From a virus (Duplodnaviria; Caudoviricetes): 64,000 nt of DNA. Shown here piece after piece: positions 33,913-38,753 of this stretch. The notes under the pieces were generated by a model. The model saw only the letters and a list, made by a program, of their open reading frames with translations, made no database searches and was not told the DNA's origin. The position numbers and the translations under genes are program-made. Position 1 is the first letter of the stretch. Every line of letters starts with the position of its first letter. Location: the IMG/VR virus record IMGVR_UViG_3300033067_000833, positions 1-64,000 of that record. One strand, written 5' to 3'.

Positions 33913-34109
33913 CGAATACCCTATGTTGCGTTGTGGCCCCGCCAAGTTCCAGCAGCGAATGGTTTGTTCCAAGGCGGCTTTGATCGCTCGAATGCTTGGC
34001 CGGGGCCGCCGTCCTGAATAGGACGCTCGCCGCCGAGGTAGAAAGAGAGGAACGATGACTGAGCGAAGGGCGGTGCTACAGCGCCCGTGACCAATCTGTA
34101 GCATGTGCT

Positions 34110-34214
34110 GGGACCGTGGCGTAAATGGAAAACGCTGCTTTGCAAAGGGCACCTACCGCTGGTCAGCAGCGGGGCGCTGGAGCCAACATGCGGGTTCGAT
34201 TCCCGCCGGTCCCT
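34110..34214 (+). tRNA. non-canonical 105-nt tRNA-like gene (GCA/Cys-like irregular anticodon arm, expanded variable region, no encoded CCA)
   Basis: GGGACCG/CGGTCCC acceptor, GCGT/ACGC D-stem with GG in loop, GCGGG TTCGATT CCCGC T-arm. Confidence 0.6.
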
Positions 34215-34490
34215 CTGGAATCCAGCTTGCCGCCAGTGGCCCCGGTGATTCGCCGGGTGCCGATACTGGTGGGCGACGATGGTGAGCGTCCGGCATTACG
34301 CCAAAGCTTTCAGGTAGTTTTCCTGAGTACAGGACCGCAAGCTAAACTACCTGCATCTTTGGCCTAAGTGCTCCTTGTGGATTCCGCACGGTTTGCGCTG
34401 CCTGTGGATGGCCCGGTGACATCGCCGGGGACCGCAGAAGCAGGCGACGAAGGTAAATTTCTCGCATCGACAAATGGCGTACCGTGCTGA

Positions 34491-34529
34491 CGTGCGACTG
34501 GTCCCGCGGGTTCGAGTCCCGCACGCACG
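34491..34529 (+). ncRNA. T-arm minihelix / degenerate tRNA 3' half
   Basis: CGTGCG/CGCACG stem, GCGGG TTCGAGT CCCGC. Confidence 0.55.
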
Positions 34530-34704
34530 CCTTGACCGCCAGAGGATAGCTGGCTGGCACCAGGCCCCGGTGTATCGCCGGGGAACCGCCTGCATCCGAC
34601 TCTGGTTTTTTGGGCAGCGTCTCGAAAGGGACGTTCAGCGGAAACGCTGGCAATGCAGCCGCTCACAATGCGGCCGGAGTGTTTTTTCTGAAGGGAGTAT
34701 GACC

Positions 34705-34899
34705 ATGCTTGTTCTGACCCGCCACGACGGCCAGAAGATCGTCCTGCCCGCGTTGGGCGTGACGTTCACCGTCGTCCGCATCGAAGGGGACCGCGTGCGT
34801 ATCGGCATCGAGGCCCCGCGTGATGTGAAGATCCTGCGCAACGAGCATTTCCCCTTGAAGGCACTGGAGGATGACCATGACAGCGACCGCAACCCGTAA
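34705..34899 (+). CDS. csrA: carbon storage regulator, RNA-binding translational regulator
   Basis: MLVLTR...VRIGIEAPRDVKILRNE; GGGAG RBS. Confidence 0.9.
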   Translation: MLVLTRHDGQKIVLPALGVTFTVVRIEGDRVRIGIEAPRDVKILRNEHFPLKALEDDHDSDRNP

Positions 34900-35461
34900 G
34901 CGTGGCCTGCCGTTCAAGCGGCTGTCCAAGGCCGCCAAGGAGCGGGCCATCGAGTGGATGCGTGACAAGCTCAATGGCGACTGGTTCGACCCAGAACCGC
35001 TGACCGAACTGTTTCGAGAGCACCTTGCCGAGCACGGGTTCCCGAACATGGAGGCTTACTGGTCGCTGGGACACTGCCAGGGCGATGGCGTTGACATCGA
35101 GGGCTCGATCGACATCGGCAAGTTAGCCGAGACGGACGAGTTCGTGCTGACTTGTCTCGCCAAGGGCGTGCTGCTGGGTGTAGGAACCTTGGATGATTGG
35201 GACTTTAGCTGCAAAGTGAAGTGTAGCCGGGTCGAACTGGAATGGATGTGCTACAGCAACGCATTTCATGACTGTCAGAGTGCCGTTGACGACATTGGAC
35301 TGGCACTGAAAAAGCATCTGAATGACCTCATTTACAGCTTGCAACGGAAGCTCTCCAAGTACGGATACGACGAAATCAACTACCTGACATCCAAGGAGCG
35401 CGCCATCGAGAGCATCGAGGCCAACGACTACAGCTTCGACTGTGAAGGAGACATCCTGTGA
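34877..35461 (+). CDS. conserved phage hypothetical protein, translationally coupled to the RT
   Basis: FKRLSKAAKERA...YDEINYLTSKERAIESIEANDYSFDCEG; TGA overlaps the RT GTG start. Confidence 0.7.
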   Translation: MTATATRKRGLPFKRLSKAAKERAIEWMRDKLNGDWFDPEPLTELFREHLAEHGFPNMEAYWSLGHCQGDGVDIEGSIDIGKLAETDEFVLTCLAKGVLLGVGTLDDWDFSCKVKCSRVELEWMCYSNAFHDCQSAVDDIGLALKKHLNDLIYSLQRKLSKYGYDEINYLTSKERAIESIEANDYSFDCEGDIL

Positions 35462-36354
35462 CCAGACGCAAAGCCCGAACCCCGAAGCCCGAGTTCGACA
35501 TTCTCAAGATCAGCAAAGGCAATGGCAAGTTCCGCACGATTTATCGCCCCCGCCGGGACATCAAGGCGACGCTGCGGACCTACATCCCGGTCCTGGAGGA
35601 GATTGCCCTGAAGCTCTGCCCGCCCAACGTGGTGCATGGCTTCTGGCCCGCCCGCAACTGCGTGTCGAACGCGCAGATGCACGTTGGGACGTGGCGGTAC
35701 ACCGTCTGCATGAACCTGAAGGACTTCTTCGACCACTGCACAGACGCGATGCTGGGGCCTGCAATCGACCCGCAGCCAGCGTTTCACGGGAGCATCCCAC
35801 GGATACTGACCCCGGATGGTGCTTGCCGCCAGGGCCTGCCAACGTCCCCCGCCGCGGCCAACGTATGCTTCGCGGCGTGCGACCACGACATCATCAGCGC
35901 CCTCAAGGCGGCCGGCATCCAGTTCGTCTACTCCCGCTACGCCGACGACCTCACGTTTTCGGTGATGACACGGGAAGCGGTTGACGCGATACTGAGCATC
36001 GTTCCCAAGGTGGTCCGCGACCGTGGCTTCGTCCTGAACGAGAAGAAAACCCACGTCCAGTACGCCGGGGCCGGGCGTCGTGTGATTACGGGCGTCGCCG
36101 TGGACGAGACGAGCGTGTACCCCACGCGGAAGTCTCGCCGCCGGCTGCGGGCCGCCAAGCACAAGATGACCCTCCCGTGCAAGTACGGGGTGGGGCTGCA
36201 CCGCAAGCACCGGGCCGCTGGGCTCGCCGAGTGGTGCAAGTGCAAGCCGCCCATGTACGGGCGCAAGGCTCGTAAAGAGATGGCGGGCAATCCGGACGAG
36301 GCGTTGTTGATCGCTGCCAAGGCCAAGCAGTACGGAGTGCAGGATCATGCCTGA
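35458..36354 (+). CDS. retron-type reverse transcriptase (motif A Asp replaced by Asn)
   Basis: KGNGKFRTIYRP, HGF, NAQMH (retron region X), MNLKDFF, QGLPTSP, YADD, RVITG (region Y VTG-like). Confidence 0.9.
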   Translation: MTRRKARTPKPEFDILKISKGNGKFRTIYRPRRDIKATLRTYIPVLEEIALKLCPPNVVHGFWPARNCVSNAQMHVGTWRYTVCMNLKDFFDHCTDAMLGPAIDPQPAFHGSIPRILTPDGACRQGLPTSPAAANVCFAACDHDIISALKAAGIQFVYSRYADDLTFSVMTREAVDAILSIVPKVVRDRGFVLNEKKTHVQYAGAGRRVITGVAVDETSVYPTRKSRRRLRAAKHKMTLPCKYGVGLHRKHRAAGLAEWCKCKPPMYGRKARKEMAGNPDEALLIAAKAKQYGVQDHA

Positions 36355-36512
36355 GTTCACCCTGACAAACGACCGGCGCGGAACGCCGCGACGCTCCGAA
36401 TTTGCGGACAACGAGCGGTCGAAACAACTGCTGCTGCTGAGTGGTCTGAACTGCGCCAGCGGCCAGAAGGATCTGTTCCCAGACCTCGACACTTTCCCCA
36501 AGGAGACCTCCG

Positions 36513-37070
36513 ATGCCCAAACCCATCCCGACCGAAGCCGAGATTGACGCTGCGTGGGCAGCCGCCAACAAGATCATCGACGGACTGACGTTCGCCCCCG
36601 AGTTCACCATCGAGGATTACCCGATCGGTGGCGTGAACGCGGGGAACTGCCGGCTTGCCGTCGACTTCAAGAAGGGCCGCGGCTGGCGCACGAACAAGAC
36701 GACCACGAACAAGCACGGCCGCTGGTGCCAGCCCAAGACCAGCGTGTACCAAGCCGAGCCGATCGTCGTCGTGCTTGGCGTCGAGTTCGATGACACGACC
36801 ACCGCGGCGTGGCTCCGAATGGACCAGCGGACTGGCCCGTACCTGCAGATGGCCAACTACGACAACCGGATGCTGTGCGAGCCGCCTTGCTACTTCCGGC
36901 CGCAACGCGAGGACAGCGCGTACGGCATCCGCGTCAACGACGGACCCGAGGAACGCAAGGTGCTGACGGCGGACAACCCGCTGCTGTGCGATGCGTGGGA
37001 CCGCTGGTTCGACGAGTACAAGCGGCTGGTGAAGAGGGTTCTGGCTTTCATCGAAGGGAGCAAGACGTGA
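36513..37070 (+). CDS. hypothetical protein
   Basis: RBS AGGAG; consistent codon usage. Confidence 0.65.
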   Translation: MPKPIPTEAEIDAAWAAANKIIDGLTFAPEFTIEDYPIGGVNAGNCRLAVDFKKGRGWRTNKTTTNKHGRWCQPKTSVYQAEPIVVVLGVEFDDTTTAAWLRMDQRTGPYLQMANYDNRMLCEPPCYFRPQREDSAYGIRVNDGPEERKVLTADNPLLCDAWDRWFDEYKRLVKRVLAFIEGSKT

Positions 37071-38102: not shown

Positions 38103-38753
38103 TTGGAGACAGTGATGTCTGAGTCGCATTCTACTGCGCCCGTTGAGTATCGACAAGTTCCCGGTTTTCCGTTGTACCGTGTCGGTGACGATGGATCGGT
38201 CTGGAGCAAGTACAACAACAAGTGGGGCATCCGAGACGAGTGGAAGCGATTGCGTGGGTCGCGTGATCAGTACGGGTATCTCCGTGTCCATCTGCGGCCG
38301 TCAACTCCGCTTCGGTATCGTTACATCCACCACCTAGTGCTGGAACTTTTTGTTGGACCTTGCCCAGATGGATTTCAAAGTTGCCACAAGAACGACGTGA
38401 AGAACGACAATCGCCTGAGCAACTTACGATGGGGAACGCCATCGAGCAACAAGCGCGATGCGTATCGGAATGGCTGCTTGCCACGAGGCGAGCGACACGG
38501 GCACGCAAGGCTGAAAGACGATGACATTCCAGTTATCGTTAGCCTGTTCTTGTCTGGCTTGTCGCCTTACAAGATTTCAAAGAAATACGCAGTTACACAG
38601 TGCCCAATTCACGCCATCATCATTGGCAAGACATGGAAACACATACCACGGGAGACGTTCGATGCGAGATCAAGGGAGGTTACGGGCCGGATACTTCCCG
38701 TGCCCGCCGGAAGCGATACAGGACGCACTGAAGTATCTCCGTCCGAATCCTGA
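38103..38753 (+). CDS. NUMOD4/HNH homing-endonuclease-like protein
   Basis: YRVGDDGSVWS, IHHLVLELFVG, SCHKNDVKNDNRLSNLRWGT..N. Confidence 0.9.
   Translation: METVMSESHSTAPVEYRQVPGFPLYRVGDDGSVWSKYNNKWGIRDEWKRLRGSRDQYGYLRVHLRPSTPLRYRYIHHLVLELFVGPCPDGFQSCHKNDVKNDNRLSNLRWGTPSSNKRDAYRNGCLPRGERHGHARLKDDDIPVIVSLFLSGLSPYKISKKYAVTQCPIHAIIIGKTWKHIPRETFDARSREVTGRILPVPAGSDTGRTEVSPSES

Follow-up and report, generated by a model that had tools for sequence, protein, structure and literature searches.

A private Asp-to-Asn substitution at the motif A catalytic position of a phage retron-type reverse transcriptase

Described relatives and the phage gene

The described reverse transcriptases (RTs) closest to the one studied here belong to retrons. 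In retron Ec86 (Eco1), whose RT has been solved (PDB 7V9U and 7V9X), the gene is accompanied by an adjacent msr-msd non-coding RNA and an effector, and the system acts in bacterial anti-phage defence. Lytic phages, too, have been reported to encode retron-like RTs that stand alone and have no assigned role, an example being gp206 of the Staphylococcus jumbo phage MarsHill (bioRxiv 10.1101/2020.12.14.422802). For the catalytic centre we refer to HIV-1 RT, where the aspartates D110 and D185 coordinate the catalytic Mg2+ ions (PMC11618517).

We analysed a window of 64,000 nucleotides that corresponds to positions 1 to 64,000 of IMG/VR record IMGVR_UViG_3300033067_000833, a linear virus contig of 76,343 bp with a CheckV completeness of 68%. 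An uninterrupted open reading frame on the plus strand (35458-36354) encodes a retron-type RT of 298 amino acids, identified by Pfam RVT_1, by PADLOC and by its fold, and its translation contains YTVCMNLKDFFDHC. The GTG start codon shares the sequence GTGA with the TGA stop of the ORF just upstream. The four motifs that a sequence-only reading of this DNA had listed as intact (YADD, QGxPTSP, NAxxH and VITG) are all found in the translation: NAQMH, the retron-type NAxxH, at residues 71-75 (35668-35682); QGLPTSP, in the motif B' region, at residues 125-131 (35830-35850), also seen in the conserved columns of the alignment; YADD, which is motif C and provides the two other catalytic aspartates, at residues 161-164 (35938-35949); and VITG, the retron-type VTG motif, at residues 209-212 (36082-36093). 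Three residues within these motifs, A72, H75 and G212, are invariant in a family alignment of 249 sequences. Beyond the thumb, the protein has a C-terminal extension (residues 240-298, 36175-36351) that is modelled as helices with lower confidence and that contains the residues G255-L256-x-E258-W259 and, further on, P265, invariant or nearly so in the 249 homologs.

Retron models and PDB searches by sequence and by fold place retron RTs nearest, and no retron type stands out. Pfam RVT_1, the RT palm-fingers domain, matches the protein with E=2.6e-16 (60.4 bits for a cutoff of 29.6). The PADLOC retron RT models span E=1e-38 to 1e-24, the best being types XIII, X, III-A and II-A (E=1e-38 to 1e-34), none of them outstanding. 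The NCBIfam model retron_St85_RT (NF038233) gives 118 bits, far under its curated cutoff of 235, and PHROGs assigns the protein to phrog_2825. When the PDB was searched by sequence, all matches up to E=1e-10 were retron RTs, with Ec86 on top (5.6e-18). An AlphaFold model built with 30 homologs (pLDDT 86, pTM 0.81) yielded the same picture with Foldseek, since ranks 1 to 14 against the PDB are retron RTs, headed by Ec86, Ec83, Eco7 and Eco2, and are followed by group II intron, G2L4, DRT and DGR RTs. Taken together, this evidence shows that the window encodes a retron-type RT lying outside every named retron type.

The Ec86 RT is the best match among solved structures (sequence E=5.6e-18; fold E=4.6e-16, TM 0.66). 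Both proteins are of similar size (about 300-320 amino acids) and share NAxxH, xDLxDFF (with Asn86 in the window), QGxPxSP, YADD and VTG, yet they are only 22-23% identical and motif A of Ec86 has an Asp. Unlike Ec86, the window RT lies in a phage replication module, with no non-coding RNA apparent directly next to it and no recognised effector among its neighbours by Pfam and PHROGs. The top-scoring models, those of the St85 family and of PADLOC types X, III-A, II-A and XIII, align over up to residues 6-271 of the 298, although several types score alike and none is specific. With MarsHill gp206 the window RT has in common a phage-encoded retron-like RT domain, a long upstream non-coding region and the lack of DGR parts and of a recognised effector. 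However, gp206 is larger (501 amino acids), has an extra N-terminal domain, comes from another phage lineage and is only distant kin; a related Staphylococcus aureus phage record matches the window RT at 26% identity.

Asn86 and its distribution among homologs

The motif A block, CMNLKDFFD (residues 84-92, 35707-35733; family consensus C[MF]DLxDFFD), departs from the consensus at its catalytic position. Positions 35710-35730 read ATG AAC CTG AAG GAC TTC TTC, and the AAC codon at 35713-35715 encodes Asn86. The sequence-only reading, which had called an Asn codon here in an unbroken frame, is accurate to the base. It had also taken the missing Asp for a metal-binding residue, and this is borne out by the HMMER alignment to the Ec86 RT, in which Asn86 stands opposite the Asp of NIDLEDFF, together with the Mg2+ coordination by D110, the homologous motif A aspartate of HIV-1 RT (PMC11618517). 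The catalytic triad formed by the motif A Asp and YADD is hence incomplete in the window RT, with YADD kept and Asn at position 86.

What this substitution would do to the enzyme can be gauged from other polymerases. Loss of the motif A Asp abolishes polymerisation in HIV-1 RT, as seen for D110. More generally, polymerases lose orders of magnitude in activity when a metal-ligand Asp is changed to Asn, and Mn2+ sometimes restores part of it; the carbonyl oxygen of Asn can still ligate metal. If the phenotype of these enzymes is transferred to the window RT, D86N most likely cripples its DNA synthesis or lowers it strongly.

The sequence-only reading had proposed to align phage homologs to see whether the Asn is conserved, holding that GAC in close homologs would make it an error or a private mutation. 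We retrieved homologs with a search over 5.8 billion proteins (686 matches) and with an exhaustive search of representative proteins (8999 matches, 308 of them with E < 1e-30). The window protein itself has a single member on a single contig in the protein collection. In a MAFFT alignment of 249 retrieved proteins, the motif A column holds Asp in 245, a gap in three and Asn in one, which is the window RT. Every homolog covering this column (245/245) therefore has Asp, including the 91%-identical sister P0002, and so do all of the twelve closest relatives (76-91% identity). A profile-guided scan of IMG/VR added 80 phage loci; among the IMG/VR phage contigs, Asp and YADD occur together in 81/81 RT domains that cover the column. 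At the DNA level, eight relatives from the same lineage read GAC (six) or GAT (two) at codon 86. Asn is thus not conserved, and close homologs do carry Asp codons. From GAC, the AAC of the window requires one G>A transition.

Phylogenetic analysis by maximum likelihood places the window RT as sister to P0002 within a clade of twelve with 100/100 support, whose other members all have Asp. Because the window RT is nested among these Asp-bearing sequences, Asn86 must be derived, and on one terminal branch. Other searches recovered no further carrier: two scans of metagenome contigs with degenerate motif A DNA patterns gave no match, the same pattern in viral contigs returned just the already known 82% relative, and tblastn against the cultured phages of INPHARED gave only distant matches (≤32% identity). 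The idea of an evolved, catalytically dead RT-like pseudo-enzyme is not supported, as the Asn is confined to a single terminal branch and no clade shares the loss.

How unusual such a singleton is can be judged from the family itself. Across the 249 sequences, 18 columns are invariant or have one exception; they contain ten singleton departures in nine sequences (3.6%), and none of these departures defines a clade. One belongs to P0213, a homolog of 415 amino acids that has YADN in place of YADD while its motif A Asp is intact. Among family members that come from metagenomes, singletons at the catalytic site thus recur at low frequency; they reflect segregating deleterious alleles, defective genomes or errors. 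With 9/249 members departing at invariant or nearly invariant columns, Asn86 alone is not extraordinary.

One rival explanation is an error in the sequence: 35713 would really be a G, and the phage would make a normal Asp RT. In favour of this, the record comes from metagenome assembly, the protein is found on one contig only, and every relative has G at this position. We examined four sequencing runs, none of them from RNA and all as Logan contigs, from which rare variants drop out and allele frequency is not readable. Only run X1 covers the site, with a contig of 3549 nt at a mean k-mer depth of about 5.8, which shows no difference from the record over 35000-36558 (1559 bases); no alternative unitig with G at 35713 is present among the Logan contigs of this run. 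Runs X2 and X4 contain short pieces of relatives that miss codon 86, and X3 contains nothing matching. The agreement between the record and Logan is not independent proof, since X1 may be the record's own source sample, but it is the product of a second assembler, and a wrong consensus at about sixfold depth is rare. The assembly does not look error-ridden either: the neighbouring ORFs are all intact, and the private changes of the window have a normal spectrum and a normal ratio of synonymous to nonsynonymous changes. A deamination-like artefact was considered and rejected, for C>T and G>A make up 6/14 private changes, an ordinary spectrum that resembles that of the relatives. Hence, a sequencing or assembly error at 35713 is improbable, and the allele is presumably real in the phage population.

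Selection on the RT gene

Apart from position 86, the gene bears the marks of a maintained protein. Of the 46 family columns with a conservation of 90% or more, the window RT matches 45, and D86N is its sole departure. Pairwise dN/dS ranges from 0.16 to 0.37 in comparisons with the window and from 0.15 to 0.37 among relatives. At nucleotide sites on which the seven closest relatives all agree, private changes in the window comprise nine synonymous and five nonsynonymous ones, whereas neutrality would predict 75% nonsynonymous (binomial P=0.002). When differences were polarised with six outgroups, the window branch showed 15 synonymous and 6 nonsynonymous changes, and the sister branch 13 and 4 (Fisher P=1.0). 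As judged from these substitutions, purifying selection acted on the RT over most of the window branch.

These data bear directly on the possibility that the RT is decaying, with D86N as the first visible lesion of a pseudogene. Three private substitutions, P78T, D86N and G219S, fall at positions that are invariant in the seven closest relatives, and the terminal branch of the window is longer in the tree than that of its sister (0.15 vs 0.032). Yet the P78 and G219 columns vary in the wider family, the frame has neither a frameshift nor a stop, and the ratio of synonymous to nonsynonymous changes on the branch equals that of the sister and departs from neutrality. The low omega and this sister-like ratio led us to reject the view that selection on this branch was relaxed or that the gene is decaying, a reading to which we attach the lowest probability of those considered.

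The intact ORF and the low branch omega are also compatible with an Asn enzyme that is tolerated or still functional. Such a protein, if selected, could be a weak or Mn2+-dependent polymerase, or else a non-catalytic RNA-binding scaffold or decoy, and the retention of 45/46 conserved residues under purifying selection on the terminal branch speaks for it. Nevertheless, a recent mutation explains the purifying selection on the branch equally well, there is no compensating change at other active-site columns, and the 76-kb record contains no second RT copy, though it is 68% complete. From these sequence comparisons, either D86N would be recent or the Asn protein would still be useful, and the fact that neither a relative nor a clade has inherited the Asn favours a recent origin. 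We consider a functional and selected Asn enzyme improbable. The narrower idea that Asn86 is fixed in the phage population, the protein being kept as a non-polymerising or very weakly polymerising RNA-binding factor, is very improbable; if true, an active phage retron-type RT would here have taken a first natural step towards becoming a pseudo-enzyme, and the selection might come, for example, from a host defence that senses the cDNA product of the RT.

Of the three readings first offered for the Asn codon, two do not hold as evolved features: both the RNA-binding scaffold and the dominant-negative decoy of host retrons fail because the relatives have GAC or GAT and the wider homologs all have Asp. 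The third, a recent mutation or an error, stands. We regard as probable that the window carries a private, recent and likely disabling (null or hypomorphic) GAC>AAC allele in one uncultured phage genome. In this uncultured tailed-phage lineage, as in the wider family, the RT has the full catalytic triad, consisting of the motif A Asp and YADD, and is held by purifying selection, from which we infer that its selected function needs polymerase activity. In the window copy, a single derived G>A change has replaced the motif A Asp, the equivalent of HIV-1 D110, by Asn; it is private to one assembled genome and younger than the split from the closest relative. On this view, the low-coverage metagenome assembly has captured an accessory gene in a sporadic null or hypomorphic form rather than an evolved pseudo-enzyme. 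The presence of such an allele in an assembled genome suggests in turn that the RT may be dispensable for short-term propagation, that is, accessory.

The RT alleles of this lineage also look mosaic. In the variable finger loop (residues 93-120), the window and the relative L004 are identical and L009 differs, yet at the C-terminal tail the L004 RT matches L009; for 76 of the sites at which the window and L004 differ, the change could not be polarised. These patterns suggest recombination among co-circulating phages.

Genomic setting of the RT gene

Upstream of the RT lie, in order, a MoxR-type AAA ATPase gene, a DUF2201 VWA/metallopeptidase gene, a non-coding block of about 790 nt, a CsrA-like gene and a phrog_5162 ORF. 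Downstream are small ORFs, a clamp-loader-like AAA gene, an HNH endonuclease gene and a DUF6094 methyltransferase gene. We compared this arrangement with syntenic relatives from other samples, whose RTs are 56-91% identical to that of the window and whose contigs reach the RT neighbours. The order MoxR, DUF2201, non-coding gap, RT, small ORFs, AAA, DUF6094 and SNF2-like recurs in the relative contigs that extend far enough, and this conserved synteny indicates that the RT is a stable member of the early/replication module of the phage. By Pfam and PHROGs, the neighbours (CsrA, phrog_5162, clamp-loader AAA, HNH and methyltransferase) include no recognised retron effector.

The CsrA-like regulator gene (34705-34899, plus strand; Pfam CsrA E=1.8e-15) is also present in L001 and L004. 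It is followed by the ORF of 196 amino acids assigned to phrog_5162 (34871-35461, plus strand), which is translationally coupled to the RT; this ORF has no Pfam match, and its neighbours in the protein atlas are viral hypothetical clusters only. The window, L001, L004, L005 and L006 have this ORF before the RT, but L007, L008 and L009 have short ORFs in its place, and L002 and L010 about 550 nt of non-coding DNA, so that what immediately precedes the RT varies among relatives. On the other side, an ORF for an HNH_3 homing-type endonuclease (38103-38753, plus strand) is flanked by the clamp-loader-like AAA gene and the gene for the DUF6094 methyltransferase; this place has no HNH gene in L001, L002 and L006, and the window copy is likely a recent insertion.

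The non-coding block (33913-34698, plus strand), 5' of the CsrA-like gene, the phrog_5162 ORF and the RT, is conserved and highly structured according to Rfam, folding and comparison with relatives. Its region 34100-34700 folds at -280.6 kcal/mol (z=-4.9 vs shuffles) and carries, on the plus strand, a hairpin of the type CCC(C)GGUG-NNN-CGCCGGG in triplicate. A tRNA-like element of 105 nt (34110-34214, plus strand) matches the full Rfam tRNA model, positions 1-71, with 38.1 bits; it is overlong for a normal tRNA and is not called by ARAGORN. Further on, a T-arm/acceptor minihelix (34491-34529, plus strand) consists of a 6-bp acceptor-like stem (CGTGCG/CGCACG) around a canonical T-arm (GCGGG TTCGAGT CCCGC), with neither a D arm nor an anticodon arm. 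This minihelix is conserved in relatives, being nearly invariant in six related phages with variable flanks; besides the window, it is seen in L001 (~2044-2082), L006, L007, L008 and L002.

With regard to an msr-msd layout, which would be contiguous with the RT and have a1/a2 repeats and a branching G, the RT start overlaps the upstream ORF and the structured conserved block lies 0.75-1.5 kb upstream. An Rfam scan near the RT found no known retron non-coding RNA and gave the tRNA-like match only. The block at 33913-34698 is no more than a candidate for an RNA that partners the RT. T-arm elements stand 5' of the RT in loci of the window lineage, whereas of about 80 phage RT loci that are more distant only a few have them. 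Owing to this rarity, we take them as characteristic of the phage lineage rather than of the RT family, and rejected a family-wide partnership of the RT with T-arm or tRNA-like elements.

A naturally dead RT serving as a scaffold or as an anti-retron decoy would, if true, be a new principle of phage counter-defence. The evidence instead describes a one-off mutation in one assembled genome, and nothing new on RT biology follows from it. The lesson is a practical one: singletons at catalytic sites occur in a few percent of metagenome-derived RTs, and close homologs should be checked before such changes are interpreted. What the locus does document is a well-conserved but uncharacterised clade of retron-type RTs that stand alone within a phage replication module. 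This clade has the full triad and is under purifying selection, and an Asp-bearing relative is the better starting point for learning its function.
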